In this document: one piece after another, positions 13,041 to 60,709 of the stretch
How positions within the stretch are numbered: position 1 is the stretch's first letter
Layout of the letters: each line of letters begins with the position of its first letter
Origin: Mobula hypostoma
Lineage: Eukaryota
Assembly: GCF_963921235.1 (NCBI RefSeq)
Contig: NC_086097.1
Coordinates: 98,520,001-98,584,000 of the forward strand
DNA length: 64,000 nucleotides
Reading direction: 5' to 3'
Notes under the pieces: model-generated
Told to the model about the DNA's origin: nothing
What the model saw: the letters and a program-made list of their open reading frames with translations, nothing else
The model's database searches: none
Made by a program: the position numbers and the translations under genes

Positions 13041-14978
13041 AACACACACAAAAAATGCTGGTGAACACAGCAGGCCAGGCAGCATCTATAGGAGGAGGTA
13101 CAGTCAACGTTTTGGGCCGAGACCCTTCGTCAGGACTAACTGAAAGAAGAAATAGTAAGAGATTTGAAAGTGGGGGGGGAGAGGGGGAGATCTGAAATGA
13201 TAGGAGAAGACAGGAGGGGGAGGGATGGAGCTAAGAGCTGGAAAGTTGATTAGCAAAAGGGATACGAGACTGGAGAAGGGAGAGGATCATAGGATGGGAG
13301 GCCTAGGGAGAAAGAAAGGGGGGGGAGCCCAGAGGATGGGCAAGGAGTTATAGTGAGAAGGACAGAGGGAGGAAAAAAAAGGGGGAAATTAATAAATAAG
13401 GGGTGGGGTACGAGGGGGAGGTGGGGCATTAACGGAAGTTAGAGAAATCAATGTTCATGCCATCAGGTTGGAGGCTACCCAGACGGAATATAAGATGTTG
13501 TTCCTCCAATCTGAGTGTGGCTTCATCTTGACAGTAGAGGAGGCCGTGGATAGACATCTCAGAATGGGAATGGGATGTGGAATTAAAATGTGTGGCCACT
13601 GGGAGATCCTGCTTTCTCTGGCAGACAGAGCATAGGTGTTCAGCGAAACGGTCTCCCAGCCTGTGTCGGGTCTCACCAATATATAGAAGGCCGCATCGGG
13701 AGCACCGGACGCAGTATATCACCCCAGCCGACTCACAAGTGAAGTGCCGTCTCACCTGGAAGGACTGTCTGGGGCCCTGAATGGTGGTGAGGGAGGAAGT
13801 GTAAGGGCATGTGTAGCACTTGTTCTGCTTACAAGGGTAAGTGCTGGGAGGGAGATCGGTGGGAAGGGATGGGGGGGGAACGAATGGACAAGGGAGTCAG
13901 GTAGGGAGCAATCCCCGCGGAAAGCAGAAGGGGTGGGAGGGAAAGATGTGCTTAGTGGTGGGATCCCGCTGGAGGTGGCGGAAGTTACAGAGAATAATAT
14001 GTTGGACCTGGAGGCTGGTGGGGTGGTGGTGAGGCCGAGGGGAGCCCTATTCCTAGTGGGGTGGCGGGAGGATGGGGTGAGAGCAGATGTGCCTGAAATG
14101 GGAGAGATGCGTTTGAGAGCAGAGTTGATGGTGGAGGAAGGGAAGCCCCTTTCTCTAAAAAGGGACATCTCCCTCGTCCTGGAATGAAAAGCCTCATCCT
14201 GAGAGCAGATGCGGCGGAGACGGAGGAATTGCGAGAAGGGGATGGCATTTTTGCAAGAGACAGGGTGGGAAGCGGAATACTCCAGGTAGCTGTGAGAGTC
14301 CGTAGGCTTATAGTAGACATCAGTGGATAAGCTGTCTCCAGAGACAGAGACAGAACGATCAAGAAAGGGCAGACAGGTGTCGGAAATGGACCAGGTAAAT
14401 TTGAGGGCAGGGTGGAAGTTGGAGGCAAAGTTAATGAAGTCAACGAGCTCAGCAGGCGTGCAGGAAGCAGCGCCAATGCAGTCGTCGATGTAGCAAAGGA
14501 AAAGTGGGGGACAGATACCAGAATAGGTTTGGAACATGGATTGTTCCACAAAGCCAAAAAAAAGGCAGGCATAGCTAGGACCCATACGGGTGCCCATGGC
14601 TACACCTTTAGTTTGGAGGAAGTGGGAGGAGCCAAAGGAGAAATTATTAAGAGTAAGGACTAATTCCGCTAGAAGGAGGAGAGTGGTGGTAGAAGGGAAC
14701 TGGTTAAGTCTGGAATCCAAAAAGAAGTGGAGAGCTTTGAGACCTTCCTGGTGGGGGATGGAGGTATACAGGGACTGGACATCCATGGTGAAAATAAAGC
14801 AGTGAGGGCCAGGGAACTTAAAATCATTGAAAAAATTCAGCGTGAGAGGTGTCACGAACATCGGTGGGAAGGGATTGAACAAGGGGGGATAAAACAGTGT
14901 TGAGGTATGCAGAAATGAGTTCAGTGGGGCAGGAGCAAGCTGAGACAATGCGTCTACCTGGACAGACAGGTTTGTGGA
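13041..14978 (-). mobile_element. Penelope-like element (RT + GIY-YIG endonuclease + terminal repeat), frameshifted
   Basis: ORF 13752-14981 MDVQSLYTSIPH, GVAMGTRMGPSYA, YIDD; ORF 13429-13755 GVIYCVRCSRCGLLYIGET; flanked by old CR1 sequence. Confidence 0.92.
13102..13137 (-). ncRNA. Minimal type-I hammerhead ribozyme motif (mutated) in the Penelope terminal repeat
   Basis: Minus strand AGUC-CUGACGA-AGGGUCUCGGCCC-AAAA-CGUU-GACU; core GAAA changed to AAAA. Confidence 0.7.
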
Positions 14979-15778
14979 CATAATCCAGGTTTGGTCTCAA
15001 CAGAGCTCTACATTAAGGTATCTTTGCTCTTGTGTTCAAATCCTCTTGCAATAAAGGGCAACACAATATTTACTATTCTAATTTCTTCCTGCATCTGCAA
15101 ATTAAGTGAGTGATATACAAGCATTCTTTGAGACCTTTGGTACTTGTAAGTACCGAAGGCCTCAGCAGCTGTATCTGTAAAACCAGACTAGTTGCAGCTT
15201 CACCCAAAATGACCCTCTGTCATTCTGTGCAGTGTACAGTTTGTTAATCGGTCCTTAATCCATGCTGGTAATCACCTCTAATACAAGACATTCTAATTTT
15301 GTGTAAAGCACTGGTACCTGGCTTTGTATTTGAAATGTGTTTCCAGGAATGATAACTCTAGTTGAGTTAGAATGTGTAACACTGCAGCACACATACAGGC
15401 TCGTTAGCCCACAATATTGTACTGAACAAATTAAACTAGTAATTAAATGCTTAAACTAATCTCTTTTGCCTACATCGTGTCTATATCCTTCCATTGTAGA
15501 GACATTTTCAAATACCTATCTACAATCCTTTTAAATGTCTCTTTCATATTTGTCCTCAATACCACCCTGGCAATGCATTCCAGGCACCCACCATTCTGTG
15601 TACATATATAACAGGAAGATGCCCTGCACATCTCATTTGTTGGAACCAAAAGACCCTCTGTACCTCAAACACTGTTAAGAATATTTGATCTGTCACAAGT
15701 CACCTCACATTTGGCCAGATTAAACTTTCATCTACCATATCTCTGCCCATGTCTACAACTGATCTGTATCAGTTGTAT

Positions 15779-15963
15779 GGGGCGTCAGGGAGGGGTAGCA
15801 CCTCTGGTGGGGGAACATGTCGCGTCCTTTTCAAGGCGGTTTGTCCACCTCTGGTCCCCACCTGTCACTCAGCTCTCACCTGTGGCTCCCTGTAGCTGTT
15901 TGCATGTGACAGCGGCCACACCCTGGGCGACGGCTTCAACAAGCCGGCTAAACCGGGTGAGGG
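15779..15963 (+). ncRNA. HDV-like self-cleaving ribozyme at the RTE 5' end
   Basis: P1, P1.1, P2, P3, P4 and J4/2 GCUAA all assignable by hand in HDV order (see findings). Confidence 0.78.
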
Positions 15964-17360
15964 TAGCCGACGGGTCTCAAACCCTCGGTGAGATAGGGAG
16001 TTGTCTATCCCTGCATGTGAAGACAGACTCCGGCGGATTGAGCAGATGAGACCAATGGTAGGTCCAACAGTCAAGAAGGCGGTCTCTGCAAGCGTCGTAG
16101 AACGCGTAGAGCAGGACAAGACACAGAAGATGTTCTGGTCATCCACTGCGCCTAGTCTCATCTCCAGCCGTCTCGACTCTGTCTTGCCATTGGATCCAGA
16201 TGGGAATTGGGAAGAGAGAGTGAGGCTGACGCTGCACAACTCTCCCTCACTTAAATCCAAATCAAGCGCTAGTCTTGACACCATCATCATCACCCTCAAC
16301 CTTTGAAGTCCTGTGGCGATGGGGGAGCGACGAAGCAGCTGGTGTGGATACACTGGGAGCTGTAGTCACGGACCTGCACACAGGTGGCTCAGGTCTAATA
16401 GTCGCTTTTCGCTGACTGAAGCAGCAGTGAAACTCGGCGTCTATCTGGGCGACTGAGCAGCCCTCTTTAGGAACGCGTAGCTCACCTCCGTAGTATGAGG
16501 AAGGGGGCTAGAAAAGGTGCCCTAAACATTACCTGCTTCATTACACCCTGCCCAGTTTACCGCGGCTGGTGGGGATCCTATCTTGGCGGTCGAAAAAACA
16601 CAATGAAACGCAAGGTGATACCGCTCACCATTGGCACTTGGAACGTGCACACACTATTGGACAACCCTACAGCAAACAGACTAGAGAGAAAAACAGTCTT
16701 AGTTGCCTGAGAGCTTGCAAGATACAACATTGACATTGCAGCCCTGAGTGAGACTCGTCTTGCCAACGAAGGTCAGCTGACTGAAACTGGAGTGAAGTGG
16801 TCGTGGCAGCAATGAGCGTCGTGAGGCTGGAGTTGGATTCGCTTTCAGGAGTCACCTTGTTCGGAAACTTGCTAGTCTCCCCAAGGGTGTGAACGACCGG
16901 CTCATGACACTACAGCTTCTGCTACAGAACAGAAGTCAAGCCACCCAGATCAGTGCCTAAGCCCCCACAGTGACCAACTTGGATGTAACAAAAGACAGGT
17001 TCTATGAAGAACTGGATGCTGTACTATCAGCAGTGAGCAGCACGGACAAGCTGATCTTGCTGGGCGACTTCAATGCAAGAGTAGGGTGCGATTCTGCAGC
17101 CTGGCAGGGAGTCGTTGGGAGTCACGGAGTGGGCAAATGTAACAGTAACGGCCTACTCTTACTAAAGACCTGTGCAGCACACGACCAGCTCATCACCAAC
17201 ACAACTTTCCGCTTGCCTACCTGTAACAAGACCTCCTGGATGCACCCCCGCTCTAAGTATTGGCATCTTATCGACTATGTCATTGTCAGGAGAAAAGACA
17301 GGCAGGATGTCAGAGTGACCAAGGCCATGACTGCTGGACAGATCACAAGCTCATTGTGGT
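15779..17360 (+). mobile_element. RTE-clade LINE: 5' UTR plus APE endonuclease, 3'-truncated
   Basis: From ATG 16603: PLTIGTWNVHTL...ELARYNIDIAALSETRL; ORF 16970-17422 LILLGDFNARVG...SWMHPRSKYWHLIDYVIVR; contains stops and frameshifts. Confidence 0.9.
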
Positions 17361-33345: not shown

Positions 33346-34895
33346 CACCCTATCCTCATTATATGCGGGCGATACATTCCTTGAAGTTGACGCATAATGT
33401 GAATAATTATTTAAATGGAGAAAATAGGGATGCATTCTGGAGGGCTTCCTAAATATGTTTTATCTGTAATTTATTCACATTTTCATACCAATACGACACA
33501 AAAGCAGTACCATAAGGCAACATTCATATTATATTTCATCAATTTAAGGTAATATTCATTGTAATAAATCATAGAAAGTTAATATCCTAGGGTGTACAGT
33601 ACTCACCAACAGTGGCAGGTGTGTTCGCTCCGGGAGATGAGTAGTGGTTGTGGTGTCGGGCAGCTTTACATGGATGAGATGGATGGTTGAGTATCGTCAA
33701 CATCATCAAGGACAGCAAGAGGTGAAGGAATACTCACAGAACTCTCAGAACTGCCGGCAGCAGGAGATGACATCGGTTTGAAGAAAGTGGTGAGGGTTGT
33801 TTGCTTGGCAACATTTTGTTTTTCAGCATAAATTTGCTTGTAGGGAAGAAGGCTTGACTGCAGGGAATGACTGAAACGCTGACTCCGTTCTAAACTTGGG
33901 TCCATGTCCATCGCCATTTGTGCCAAGTGTTCTGCAGCCTTAAAAAATTCTGCCAGTTGCTTCACTGTAAAATCCTCCACCTGCAACTCGACACTTTCTT
34001 CTTCATCGTTGTTATCACCTTCAGTCTGAGTTAAACGCAGAAGGTCATCCACACTTCATTCTTCATCATGAGAATCCAGGAGTTCTACCACGTCAGCAGT
34101 CTCGAGATCTGAGAATCCTTCCCAACCAATTTTACGGCCCAGGTCCATGCAATCCTGGACAGCTGCAGTGAAGGCAGGAAACCCCTTGAGGGTGTGCACA
34201 CACTCTGCCCAAATTGATTTCCGTGCTCCATTGAGAGGCTTCTTACTCAAACCCTTAAGAGCACGGAGGTTTAGTGAATGGTAAACTAAGAGAGGCTCCA
34301 TCTTACAGTCTCCTTCGGCATTGGAATACATAAGCAAAGTCAATCTGTCCTTTGCTGCATTGAAACCTGACGCAGTTTTTTCATCCTTACTTATATAAAT
34401 GCATTTCTGCATATGCTTCCAAAAAAGTCTGGTCTCATCTGCATTAAACACCTGCTTTGGTGTGATGCCTAACTCAGCTACCATTGCCTGCAACTGCACA
34501 GGGTAGCGTCCCAGAGCTGTGTTACCTTCACCAGATGCCCTGTTTATAATTTCCAACTTTTTTTCAAGTGTTAAAGCAATTCTCTGCCACTTGGCTGATG
34601 GCCCAGGACATGATATCGGATGCTTAGGAGACATAGTTAAATATTTCAAGCACAAAATCACTGCACCGTAGGTAAAAACAACAAAAGTTTAAGAGCGCAA
34701 GATCGCACATCCATATGTTGCCAAAAGCAATGGGAGACTGGTGGGAGTGAGACTGTGAGGTACACGCACATAACTTGTACTGGCGGAAAAGCTGTGCTCC
34801 TTTTGGATGCATATAAGGAGAAGCTGGTAGAAATAGGTTCCTAGCATAACGGTGAATCCGCATCATCTGAAGATGCATATAACGAGGATAGGGTG
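33346..34895 (-). mobile_element. Tigger/pogo-type DNA transposon with deleted transposase
   Basis: CACCCTATCCTC TIRs with TA TSD; ORF 34056-34661 RIALTLEKKLEII (HTH) joined to QVFNADETRLFWK (DDE); inserted in a CR1. Confidence 0.92.
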
Positions 34896-49955: not shown

Positions 49956-52839
49956 CAGGTTTCCCCGCTATCTGAAGGTAGAGCGTTTCTATGAAACGGT
50001 TCATAAGCCAGAATGTCGTAAAGTGAATAAGCAATTACCATTTATTAATATGGGAAAAAATTTTGAGCGTTTCCAGACCCAAAAAATAACCTACAAAATC
50101 ACGCCAAATAACACACAAAACCTAAAATAACAGTAACATTATAGTAAAAGCAGGAATGATATGATAAATACACAGCCTATATAAAGTAGAAATACTTTTC
50201 TGCAGCACTGTCTAGTGCAGCAAAAATCTCGTGGAAGTGCTCTGGGCAGAAACACGGTGCAAACGCTCTCAGCAGAAACACTCTCTCCAGTAACCTTTAA
50301 GCTATGAAGCTGCCAGATCATACCAAATAACACATAAAAATACACAGCCTATATAAAGTAGAAATAATGTATGTACAGTGTAGTTTCACTTACCGGAATC
50401 GGGAAGACTCCAATAAATTGAAGTTTCGTCACAGTTAAACACTTGCTTATACGAATAACCACCTTCTGTAATTATTTTGTTCAGTTCTGCTGGGAACTTT
50501 TTGGCAGCTTCAGTATCAGCCGAAGCACTCTCTCCGGTAAACGTTAAACTATGAAGCTGCCCTCGCCTCAGAAACCGATCAAACCACCCATGACTACCTT
50601 TAAATTCCACTTTCGCAACACTTTCATCACCATCGTCCAGTGCTTTCTGTTTCAGCTTATTAAAAAGACTGACTAATTTCTCCTTAAGTATAAGAAAACT
50701 TAATGGAACACCATGCTTTGTACACCCATCAATCCACTCAAGCAATAGACTTTTCATTTTATTCATTATTGGATGCCGACTAAGAAAGACCGCTTTGCTA
50801 TGAGCAGAACCAACAGTAACATCAGCAGCTTTCAAAATTCTTTCTCTCTGCATATAAATAGTGCGAATGTTGGATGCAGGCAAGTTCAATGCGCGGACAA
50901 TGTCCTTACTTGGTTCAGCACGATTGAAATGCTTAATTATGTCTAGTTTTACGCTAAGTGTAACACCCTTACGAGCTCTTTTAGGCTTTTCCGATACCCT
51001 AGAACTCATCTTGCTAATGGATGCACAAAATAAATTGAGATAAAGCACGTGTTTAAGCAGTGGTGGCTAGAATGCAGTTCTGGGGGAGGAGCTTGGCTGT
51101 TCGGGCGCGCACGCCTTTTCTCGTAACAGTGAAAACACCTGTTAGCGAAAACAGGTACAGGTGTCCCCTGCTTTTCAAACGTTCGCTTTACGAAACTTCA
51201 CTGTTACGAAAGACCTACATTAGTTCCCTGTTTTCGCTAACAGAAGGTGTTTCACTGTTTCAAAGAAAGGCAGTGCACAAAAAAAAAATGAGCGCGCGCC
51301 CCGAGCAGCCGCTCTCCCCCGGATTCGGAACGGCATTCTCGCCGGCATTGCCTAAACACGTGCCTGTGAGCAGCCGTTAGCAAGATGAGTTTTAAGGTAT
51401 CGGAAAAGCCTAAAAGAGCTCGTAAAGGTGTTACACTTAGCGTAAAACTAGACATAATTAAGCGTTTCGATCATGATGAACGAAGTAAGGACAAAGTGAG
51501 TTTAGCTTGTGGAAGTTGACGAAGATGATGTTCAAGAGGTTTTGACATCCCATGACCAAGAACTGATAGATGAAGAGCTGATGCAATTGGAAGAGGAAAG
51601 GATAACAATTGAAACCGAATTCAGTAGCTAAAGTGAAGTCGTCCAGGAACTGAACTTGAAGCAAGTGCGTGAGATTTTTGCTGCAATGTTAAAGTACGAC
51701 TTTAATTTTGAAAGGGTACGTCGGTTTAGGGCATACAGTATTTGCAAGATGGTTTGAGTGCTTACAAAGAACTGTATGATAGGAAAATGCGCGAGGCTCA
51801 GCAGTCAAGCAAGCCTTCCACATCACCCACAGCAGACGACAAACCTCAACCTTCGACATCGAGGCAGGCAGTCATAGGAGAAAATCAGCTGCCTGCCCTA
51901 ATGGAAACAGATGACGATGAGATGACACCCCAGTGTCCCACCACCCCAACCCCAGGCTGCGGACAGATACCGATTTGCGGAGAATACAGCAGTAGCCGGG
52001 AGGCACACAGCACATCATTAAGAAAAAAGCTGAAATAAACAAGCTAATTAATTAGGTGCCGCCTGGCACGTAATTGTCAGCCCAGATCAGAGGCGATTGC
52101 CGATTGCGTCGCCTCTGATCTGGGCTGACATTTACATGCCGGGCGGCACCTAATTAATTAGCTTGTTTATTTCGGCTTTTTTCTTAAAGATGTGCTGTGT
52201 GCCTCCCAGCTACCACTGTACCCCTGCATGCTTCGCGGATCAGTATCAGTCGCTGCCCGGAGTGTGGGGGCCACTGCACCACCCAAACTTCAACGACTCA
52301 GTCTACACACCATCATCAGCGTGCTCGGCAAGCTGTCTTCCAGATTCCTGTAAGTGATATATATACTGTATATACATTATTTCTACTTTATATAGGCTGT
52401 GTATTTTTACATGTTATTTGGTAGATTTGGCAGCTTCATAGCTTAAAGGTTACTGGAGAGAGTGTTTTTGCCAACAGCGCTTGCGTGAGATTTTCGCTAC
52501 AGAGAACAGTGCTGGCAATGATTGTGGAAAAGTATTTCTACTTTATATAGGCTGTGTATTTATCATATCATTCCTGCTTTTACTATATGTTACTGTTATT
52601 TTGGGTTTTATGTGTTACTTGGCATGATTTGGTAGGTTATTTTTGGGTCTGCGAACGCTCACAAATTTTTCCCATATAAATAAATGGTAATTGCTTCTTC
52701 GCTTTGCGGCATTCCGGCTTATGAACCATTTCATAGGAACGCTGTACCTTCGGATGGCGGGGGAAACCTGTGACTAATGTAGGTCTTTCGTAACAGCGAG
52801 GTGTCATAAAGCGAACGTTCGGAAAATGGGGGCCACCTG
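49956..52839 (-). mobile_element. Tigger-like transposon (outer copy) with CENP-B-type DNA-binding ORF
   Basis: Termini CAGGTTTCCCC and GGGGCCACCTG; ORF 50386-51048 RKGVTLSVKLDII...FKGSHGWFDRF...QVFNCDET. Confidence 0.88.
51158..52770 (+). mobile_element. Tigger-like transposon (inner copy, same family, opposite orientation)
   Basis: TA-CAGGTGTCCCC...GGGGAAACCTG-TG; both terminal regions are reverse complements of the outer copy. Confidence 0.88.
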
Positions 52840-58075: not shown

Positions 58076-60343
58076 CCATAAGACCATAAGACAAAGGAGC
58101 AGAAGTAGGCCATTCGGCCCATCGAGTCTGCTCCGCCATTTTATCATGAGCTGATCCATTTTATCCTATTTAGTCCCACTGCCCCGCCTTCACACCATAA
58201 CCTTTGATGCCCTGGCTACACAGATACCTATCAATCTCTGCCTTAAAGACACCCAATGACCTGGCCTCCACTGCTGCCCGTGGCAACAAATTCCATAGAT
58301 TCACCACCCTCTGACTAAAAATATTTTTTGGCATTTCTGTTCTGAAAGAGCGCCCTTCAATCCTGAAGTCATGACCTCTCGTACTAGACTCCCCCATCAT
58401 GGGAAACAACTTTGCCACATCCACTCTGTCCATGCCTTTTAACATTCGAAATGTTTCTATGAGGTCTCCCCTCATTCTTCTAAACTCCAAGGAATACAGT
58501 CCAAGAGCGGACAAACGTTCCTCATACGTTAACCCTCTCATTCCCGGAATCATTCTAGTGAATCTTCTCTGTACCCTCTCCAACGTCAGCACATCCTTTC
58601 TTAAATAAGGAGACCAAAACCGCCCACAGTACTCCAAGTGAGGTCTCACCAGCGCCTTATAGAGCCTCAACATCACATCCCTGCTCCTTATACTCTATTC
58701 CTCTAGAAATGAATGCCAACATTGCATTCGCCTTCTTCACTACTGACTCAACCTGGAGGTTAACTTTAAGGGAATCCTGTACGAGGACTCCCAAGTCCCG
58801 TTGCATCTCAGAACTTTGAATTCTTTCCCCATTTAAATAATAGTCTGCCTGTTTATTTTTTCTGCCAAAGTGCATAACTGTACACTTTCCAACATTGTAC
58901 TTCATTTGCCACTTCTCTGCCCATTCTTCCAATCTATCCAAGTCTCTCTGCAGACTCTCCGTTTCCTCAGCACTACCGGCCCCTCCACCTATCTTTGTAT
59001 TGTCAGCAAACTTAGCCACAAAGCCCTCTATTCCATAATCCAAATCGTTGATGTACAATGTAAAAAGAAGCGGCCCCAACACTGATCCCTGTGGAACACC
59101 ACTGGTAACCGGCAGCCAACCAGAATAGGATCCCTTTATTCCCACTCTCTGTTTCCTGCCAATCAGCCAACGCTCTATCCACGTATGTAACTTTCCTGTA
59201 ATTCCATGGGCTCTTATCTTGTTAAGCAGCCTCATGTGTGGCACCTTGTCAAAGGCCTTCTGAAAATCCAAATATACAACTTTCACTAGTGGTAATTTCC
59301 TCAAAAAATTGTAATAGGTTTGTCAGGCAGGATTTTCCTTTAAGGAATCCATGCTGAGTTCTGCCTATCTTGTCATATGCCTCCAGGTACTCTGTAACCT
59401 CATACTTGACAATCGACTCCAACAACTTCCCAACCACCAACGTCAAGCTAACAGGTCTATAATTTCCTTTTTGCTTCCTTGCCCCCTTCTTAAATAGCGG
59501 AGTGACATTTGCAATCTTCCAGTCCTCCGGAACCATGCCAGAATCTATCGACTTTTGAAAGATCATCGCTAATGCCTCCGCAATCTCCACAGCTACTTCC
59601 TTCAGAACACGAGGGTGCATTCCATCTGGTCCAGGAGAATTATCGACCTTTAGCCTATTCAGCTTCCTGAGTACTTTCTCTGTCGTAATTGTGACTGCGC
59701 ACACTTCTCTTCCCTGCCACCCTTGAGTGTCTGGTATCCTGCTGTCTTCCTCAGTGAAGACTGATGCAAAATACTCGTTCAGTTCCTCTGCCATCTCCTC
59801 ATCTCCCATTACAATTTCTCCAGTATCATTTTCTATCGGTCCTATATCTACTCTCACCTGTCTTTTACTCTTTATGTACTTGAAAAAGCTTTTAGTATCC
59901 TCTTTGATATTATTTGCTAGTTTCCTTTCATAGTTAATCTTTTCTCTCTTAATGACCTTCTTGGTTTCCTTTTGTAAGGTTTTAAAGACTTCCCAATCCT
60001 CTGTCTTCCCACTAATTTTTGCTTCCTTGTATGCCCTCTCCTTAGCTTTAACTTTGGCTTTGACTTCTCTTGTCAACCACGGTTGCATCCTTTTTCCACT
60101 CGAAAATTTCTTCTTTTTTGGAATATACCTGTCTTGCACCTTCCTCATTTCTCGCATAAACTCCAGCCACTGCTGCTCTGCCGTCTTTCCCGCCAGTGTC
60201 TCTTTCCAGTCAACTTTGGCCAGTTCCTCTCTCATGCCACTGTAGTTTCCTTTACTCCACTGAAACACCGACACATCAGATTTCGGCTTCTCTTTTTCTA
60301 ATTTCACAGTGAACTCAATCATGTTATGATCACTGCCTCCTAA
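58076..60343 (-). mobile_element. Young CR1 LINE, 5'-truncated ORF2 with frameshifts and a deletion
   Basis: ORFs 59249-60322, 58657-59304, 58170-58676: SPGPDGMHP, NYRPVSLT, YLDFQKAFDKV, QGSVLGP, LVRPHLEY; (CCATAAGA)n tail. Confidence 0.95.
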
Positions 60344-60709
60344 GTGATTCCACAGGGATCACTCATTCTGTGATTATCATGTCAATTTGCCACTCTCCAC
60401 TATTCTCCCTCCTGGCCTTCATCCCTGCAGGCAGAAAAAGTGCTACACCTCTGCTCATTCACCTCTCCCTCACCGCCATTCATGGCCCCAAAAATCCTTC
60501 AAAGTGAGGAGTTGTACGTGAGGGAGGTTGGGCCTCCTGTTGCTGTCCTAATGAACACACCCAAGACAGATAAGGTGCAAAATGATATTTGGAGAAGCTC
60601 ATAGATGGTGAAATTCCTGCTGACATTTTCAGTATATTCTCTTGTATAGTTAGTAATAATAATGCTTACCTTGCTGTGATTTCATTTTTTTTGCATATTT
60701 TACTATAAA

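Follow-up and report, generated by a model that had tools for sequence, protein, structure and literature searches.

A conserved helix in L3 of a predicted HDV-like ribozyme at the 5' end of an RTE-type LINE, and its candidate docking partner downstream

L3 of HDV-like ribozymes is treated as a fixed loop of 7-8 nt, and position 27 of HDV is presumably looped out and dispensable. HDV-like ribozymes are described, to our knowledge, as having none of the peripheral tertiary contacts by which hammerhead and hairpin ribozymes are tuned. Published accounts, each cited here for the portion available to us, place HDV-like ribozymes at the 5' ends of RTE, R2, R4, R1, Ingi/L1Tc and LOA LINEs (PMC5786205, PMC6765202), and the first of these reports two-ended non-autonomous derivatives for RTE, Ingi, Vingi and R2 only. 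RNArobo descriptors for HDV define L3 as TYYHCGY (7 nt) and allow J1/2 up to ~50 nt (PMC4870747). The peripheral ends of the drz-Agam-2-1 family form no tertiary contacts, as far as the available part of that study describes (PMC4908430).

We analyzed a predicted HDV-like ribozyme within a 64,000-nucleotide stretch of the Mobula hypostoma genome (the window). A first-pass annotation had placed a hairpin, GCUGU paired with ACAGC and followed by a G, in L3 of this ribozyme. The hairpin is indeed present at 15895-15914: the letters read GCTGT-TTGCATGTG-ACAGC-G and follow directly on the 8-nt L3 core (15887-15894) and lead into the 3' strand of P3 (15915-15917). Its stem, which we name P3.1, pairs 15895-15899 with 15909-15913 and adds a U-G closing pair, leaving G15914 to trail. 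P1, P2, P3, P1.1 and P4 form a nested double pseudoknot in HDV order (Table 1), and the letters typical of HDV-like ribozymes are found: G at position 1, U20 and G25 in L3, and the predicted catalytic C in a CNRA joiner. This J4/2 joiner reads CTAA or CCAA, which the search pattern forced in the metagenome set and left free in the older-family search. L3 of the window copy measures 28 nt and so falls outside the 7-8 nt of HDV-like ribozymes; for this reason, we file the family as a variant rather than a plain HDV-like member. We take P3.1 to depart from the looped-out, tolerant position of HDV L3.

Table 1. Predicted ribozyme parts, braces and host element in window coordinates.
Feature	Position	Strand	Basis
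RTE-type LINE copy, decayed, 3' end missing	15774..17357	+	~89-90% identity to 4-kb copies in the genome
P1 5' strand of the family, predicted cut site (G1 = 15770)	15770..15776	+	copy ends, comparison with 29 close copies
Structured J1/2 insert, closed by P1.2 (15780-15789 with 15861-15870)	15777..15872	+	local folds (window and nine homologues), alignment A2
J1/2 strand, predicted brace B 5' side (partner L4)	15818..15822	+	alignment covariation, blind scan
P2 5' strand (partner 15952-15963)	15873..15883	+	fold, covariation, blind scan
P3 5' strand (partner 15915-15917)	15884..15886	+	sequence
L3 core: U20, C21-C22 and G25 equivalents (G25 = 15892), conserved A 15894	15887..15894	+	alignment
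Extra L3 hairpin P3.1	15895..15914	+	sequence, genome pattern matches, covariation
P3.1 loop hexamer, predicted brace A 5' side (partner 16013-16018)	15902..15907	+	alignment covariation, blind scan
P1 3' strand	15918..15924	+	double changes at three of the seven P1 pairs (A2)
P1.1: C21-C22 equivalents with 15925-15926 (two pairs)	15925..15926	+	
P1.1 3' strand (GG) and 4-nt J1.1/4 joiner	15925..15930	+	alignment A2
P4 (4 bp) and 8-nt L4 of fixed length	15931..15946	+	covariation, blind scan
L4 strand, predicted brace B 3' side	15937..15941	+	as for P4-L4
J4/2 with predicted catalytic C (15948)	15947..15951	+	fits published CNRA element
P2 3' strand	15952..15963	+	fold, covariation
Two predicted hairpins between P2 and brace A partner	15966..16012	+	local folds
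Downstream hexamer, predicted brace A 3' side	16013..16018	+	alignment covariation, blind scan

Compared with described ribozymes, the family shares with genomic HDV the 8-nt L3 core (U20-27 with G25), a two-pair P1.1, the J1.1/4 joiner and the catalytic C in J4/2 (PMC1874588, available part); it differs in its long L3, a J1/2 of ~96 nt, a 4-bp P4 with a fixed 8-nt loop (the P4-L4 length is identical in 22 of 22 parsed copies) and the lack of an Rfam match. With drz-Agam-2-1 it has in common the nested double pseudoknot, a long J1/2 closed by P1.2 and a P2 of ~12 bp, but the accessible text on drz-Agam-2-1 presents neither an L3 helix nor pairing of L3 with downstream RNA or of L4 with J1/2 (PMC4908430). 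A near-duplicated P1 strand has also been modeled for R2, where, in contrast to this family, the variation described concerns the lengths of J1/2 and L4 and L3 is conserved (PMC3774820, in part). The first-pass annotation had predicted that standard descriptors with a short L3 would miss the variant, and our comparison by eye bears this out: both the L3 of 28 nt and the J1/2 of ~96 nt exceed the published limits, so that the family escapes on two counts. Rfam models gave nothing at the gathering score in the window, and on five homologous loci no ribozyme family matched even at E values up to 10. Neither an L3 helix nor either of the braces introduced below is described in the portions of the literature searched; Ruminski 2011, Webb 2009, and Webb and Luptak 2011 may already show the sub-type.

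The module opens a decayed LINE copy whose 5' UTR extends to 16602 and whose endonuclease frame, from 16603, is broken by stops and a frameshift. Pfam matches to this endonuclease fall below the curated cut-off, and a long copy of the element carries RVT_1. Protein relatives contain one ORF of ~1,060 aa (mostly 1,040-1,100 aa with endonuclease and reverse transcriptase) and bear source labels of turtles, frog, carp, lancelets, snail and tapeworms. The layout of a ~4-kb element with one ORF of ~1,060 aa for an AP-like endonuclease and reverse transcriptase fits the RTE clade, of which such a layout is presumably the mark. Most close copies match the window over the first 520 bases only. These are short elements of ~560 bases that consist of both ends of the long element joined; a short copy matched a long copy over its first 521 bases and then over the last 44, as in a two-ended derivative. 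A site at the element's first base and short two-ended derivatives that keep the 5' end are features shared with known LINE ribozymes, in the portions of the accounts at hand (PMC5786205, PMC6765202).

The 5' ends of copies coincide with the predicted cut site G1. Thirty copies selected by their core have mixed letters through position -1 and common sequence from the equivalent of 15770 onward, with G at that position in 20 of 30. This coincidence argues indirectly against the first-pass alternative that the hairpin abolishes activity. An internal promoter could also produce such sharp ends. The flanks of the insertions (L051-L080) are enriched in T at -1 (15/30) and -2 (16/30). HDV cleavage is fastest after U according to the part of the source available (PMC1874588); target-site choice by the endonuclease explains the enrichment equally well as a cleavage preference. 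In most lineages a near-repeat of the P1 5' strand comes after it (window 15770-15787) and forms the 5' strand of P1.2. One of the 30 copies (L076) begins at the second repeat, which may represent a second cut site or plain truncation.

We considered 15779-15785 as the P1 strand and rejected it for the family, because copies begin 9 nt upstream of the G-run at 15779 and this stretch pairs in P1.2; in the window copy, the same register makes six of seven pairs and is a possible fallback P1. Relative to the majority of 29 close copies, the window copy has 14 differences in 15770-16030; these affect P1 at three of its first four positions and L4 and the loop at one position each. Positions 15770, 15771 and 15773 hold non-family letters and P1 is broken at the family register, and judging from these letters the window copy is likely inactive at the family cut site. 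G15929 in the joiner is a private change (A in 26/29 close copies), and A15938 disrupts one pair of brace B (G in 23/29).

Genome-wide searches showed that the hairpin is a regular part of the family. A core pattern with a free gap of 4-30 nt gave 2,186 matches against none for the reversed control; the hairpin has its full length in 99 of 100 among the matches listed, and the same flanks with a short L3 gave no match in the genome. The suspicion that the hairpin might be missing from the family consensus is thereby answered. A second pattern, designed for older families, gave 1,273 matches (control, 9), and two further genome patterns recovered mostly decayed copies of the same three families. 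All five stem pairs form in 68 of the 77 parsed copies of family 1 (79 assigned), with four pairs in the remaining nine, and in 13 of 24 copies of family 2; all four form in 7 of 10 copies of family 3. At least two older families in the same genome (L133-L162, L173-L222) keep the whole core, but their J1.1/4 joiner differs and carries a change at the equivalent of HDV C41.

The hairpin extends to distant homologues. A metagenome pattern leaving L3 free at 9-39 nt yielded 49 matches, among which, given the 9-nt minimum, hairpin-less relatives could not appear. Thirteen of these were picked as homologues by P1/P2 pairing and likeness, with the hairpin in view; L112, L114 and L117 are incomplete at the 5' side, and an endonuclease match lies downstream in 8 of the 13. 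L3 spans 26-29 nt in all 13, and the four outer stem pairs all form in 12 of them compared to none of the other 36 matches (23 long enough). G25, which lies outside the metagenome pattern, is nevertheless present in 13/13 homologues and in 74/77 family-1 copies. Identity to the query endonuclease amounts to only 24-32% in the distant lineages, indicating that the hairpin is old. The 5' part of the element was also detected in runs of seven organisms (public runs X1-X20), and contigs of four of these organisms and of four RNA metagenome runs contain family variants. Searches for prokaryotic or viral homologues were negative: viral contigs (3 and 54 pattern matches) and genome contigs (4) gave no model match better than E = 0.25, phages gave no match, and viral contigs contained no protein relative. 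Model searching of the metagenome loci is circular for 12 of the 13 homologues and is not counted as support.

Support for P3.1 comes from comparison rather than energy. Folded alone, it forms a 6-bp stem and 7-nt loop at -6.0 kcal/mol, with a z of -1.63 (16/200 shuffles as good) that does not lift it above chance; the region 15779-15965 has a folding energy z of -1.11. A2 is a MAFFT alignment of 14 rows built without reference to the structure; in it, both partners vary at each of the four outer stem pairs, pairing is kept in 98% of 56 cells, and the covariation score was reached by 0/500 shuffles. Over 11 lineages, 43/44 stem cells pair (permutation fraction 0.001). For the drawn structure including the braces, 89% of 516 cells pair, and P1, P2 and P4 show double changes; the letters of P3 and P1.1 were fixed by the search patterns, and the invariance of P3 is not evidence.

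The P3.1 loop hexamer is complementary to a hexamer ~110 bases beyond it, a putative pairing that we term brace A. In 8 of 11 lineages, this downstream hexamer is directly followed by GAAR. When the loop hexamer was scanned against the downstream 90 bases, the best site was the homologous one in 14 of 21 copies, including one with a 1-base shift. Among the remaining seven, it ranked third in L096, while in six L156-type or L093-group copies the energy scan favored a neighboring or other site. With the partner set by its flanking motif, 62/66 cells pair across 11 lineages (permutation fraction 0.0001) and 24/24 across four distinct types (0.04), the lineages being few and related and several of them single decayed copies. 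On A2, pairing holds in 84.5% of 84 cells and double changes occur at four of the six pairs; 0/500 shuffles reach the score. A register slid by +2 still pairs 77%, as expected of strands that alternate purine and pyrimidine, and MAFFT sets the partner in L109, L115 and L106 two columns off our own register. In the endonuclease tree, which has no rows for family 2, L106 or L112, family 3 is nested among lineages of the common type, while L096 and the L085/L109 branch differ separately; this placement indicates that the pair changed at least three times, on separate branches. Family 3 provides the cleanest double change, though it is CpG-type on both sides, and another double change is partly a register shift. 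Local folds leave the downstream hexamer no more accessible than the sequence around it (probability unpaired 0.18-0.72), and accessibility of the brace strands in such folds is uninformative. Overall, the matching changes in distant relatives suggest that the loop grips the downstream hexamer.

A second putative contact, brace B, involves L4: in most lineages, its last six letters have a complement in J1/2 at -59 to -74 from P3. On A2, 83% of 83 cells pair, compared to 24-51% for slid registers, and 13 cells change on both sides; the number of pairs with double changes (three) is no better than in shuffles (416/500). MAFFT misaligns brace B in L109 and L115, no clear site exists in L106, and the region is absent from L112. 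In a blind scan using one row per lineage (10 analyst-chosen rows, 256 columns) of an alignment made independently of the structure, 29,890 five-pair helices were scored; ranking was restricted to helices in which 80% or more of the cells pair and at least two columns vary. The top five were P4 (1.47), P3.1 (1.42), brace A (1.33), brace B (1.27) and P2 (1.13), after which the score of the sixth helix drops to 0.71. The sixth and eighth helices join 15775-15779 with 16014-16018 or 15903-15907 (0.71, 0.62); they may compete with P1 as an alternative pairing or may be artefacts of the alignment.

Sequence comparison thus establishes the stem and its constant position behind the G25 equivalent, as well as the complementarity within each brace and the copy ends at the predicted G1. 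We assign a probability of just under 0.6 to the reading that this conserved L3 helix, in the HDV-like fold with which the RTE-type LINE begins, is a docking arm whose loop pairs with the downstream hexamer. The first-pass view of the hairpin as an insertion in L3 is upheld, but not its view as a tolerated one, since the evidence favors an arm with a specific downstream partner. Under the proposed mechanism, the element would be transcribed inside a host RNA, and the predicted core would cut before G1 using C15948, freeing the element from the host transcript. Brace A would anchor the P2-P3 stack, on its L3 side, to RNA further downstream, and brace B would tie the J1/2 arm to the foot of the P1-P4 stack, such that the two would clamp both stacks and speed folding. 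By keeping the module folded after the cut, the braces would shield the uncapped 5' end and allow full-length RNA to reach the reverse transcriptase. In the available portions of the literature, peripheral domains speed HDV-like ribozymes almost 1000-fold (PMC4908430) and the HDV-like fold protects the uncapped 5' end in R2 (PMC13708176); the brace mechanism would extend the P1.2 pinch effect of the former and the end protection of the latter. Somewhat short of an even chance is the broader proposal that a deep RTE branch across animals carries an undescribed four-pseudoknot HDV-like sub-class, in which the L3 helix docks downstream and L4 docks with J1/2.

Brace A might instead be a timing switch, in which docking after ~70 more bases past the catalytic C turns cutting on or off and ties it to transcription. 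We consider this unlikely. The partner does sit beyond the classical ribozyme, 50 nt past P2, and has competing local pairings in several lineages, and the weaker helices of the blind scan would join the partner or the loop to the P1 end; however, those alternatives have about half the score of brace A and are due in part to the 5' ends of L085 and L096 being misaligned by 2 nt. Less likely again is that the hairpin and its pairing are irrelevant to cutting and serve as a platform for cap-independent translation or for the element's own protein. The HDV-like 5' modules of R2 and L1Tc have been proposed to be IRES-like (PMC6765202, available part), and the loop retains a CAY core across lineages. 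The 560-bp copies without a protein keep the whole module, which can be read in either direction: a platform might be what they retain, but they need no translation. The arm also adjoins the G25 position, making an effect on the core likely.

It is improbable that two element RNAs dimerize through the loop as a self-complementary kissing signal, or that the hairpin is merely a tolerated insertion. The loop hexamer is palindromic in several lineages (46/77 family-1 copies; L089, L091 and L117), and CPEB3 offers a parallel in having L3 residues able to pair outside the core: in the available part of that report, a 4-nt palindrome in its 7-nt L3 pairs between molecules in crystals, producing dimers and disrupting P1.1 (bioRxiv 10.1101/2022.09.22.508989). 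By contrast, in the window family a separate hairpin bears the loop, P1.1 can still form, and the putative partner lies in the same RNA. We ceased to favor the palindromic dimer when the loops of two lineage groups turned out not to be palindromes; the loops of family 3 and of L093/L106/L112 still match their own downstream partner, and a neutral insert would not keep a covarying one. Least probable, by a small margin, is a non-catalytic HDV-like fold with an active site distorted by the L3 helix and a 5' end set by a promoter: the portions of literature searched contain no tested HDV-like ribozyme of comparable L3 length, but G25 is kept in the homologues without being forced by the pattern, the older families retain the P1.1 GG and the J4/2 C with other flanks, P1 covaries, and copies end at G1.

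If the four-pseudoknot proposal is correct, the sub-class would provide the first case of peripheral loop contacts holding or switching an HDV-like ribozyme; its working length would extend ~55 nt beyond the accepted 3' end, and every search would have missed thousands of copies per genome. A natural L3 helix with a covarying downstream partner would revise the views both of L3 as a fixed loop and of these ribozymes as free of peripheral tertiary contacts. It would also change the boundaries for testing such RNAs, given that a construct ending at P2 would lack brace A. The class is under-counted, in agreement with the first-pass suggestion that it is under-annotated: one genome holds >2,000 core matches of one family and >1,200 of the older families outside current models. 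The L3 helix would in addition offer a new attachment place for aptamers, and RTE elements serve as gene-writing tools with UTRs under optimization (PMC13708176, in the part available).

Two further observations concern the host element and its surroundings. In the short elements, the end of the 5' part is complementary to the start of the 3' part, giving a hairpin at the junction (window 16275-16290); the same two complementary stretches lie ~3.5 kb apart in long copies (L167, L172), where end-to-end pairing could occur. The window also contains other decayed mobile elements on the minus strand, at 13755-14996, 34059-34688, 50389-51066 and 58660-60358, which include reverse transcriptase pieces, a CENP-B/Tc5-type transposase N-terminus and a weak DDE_1 piece.
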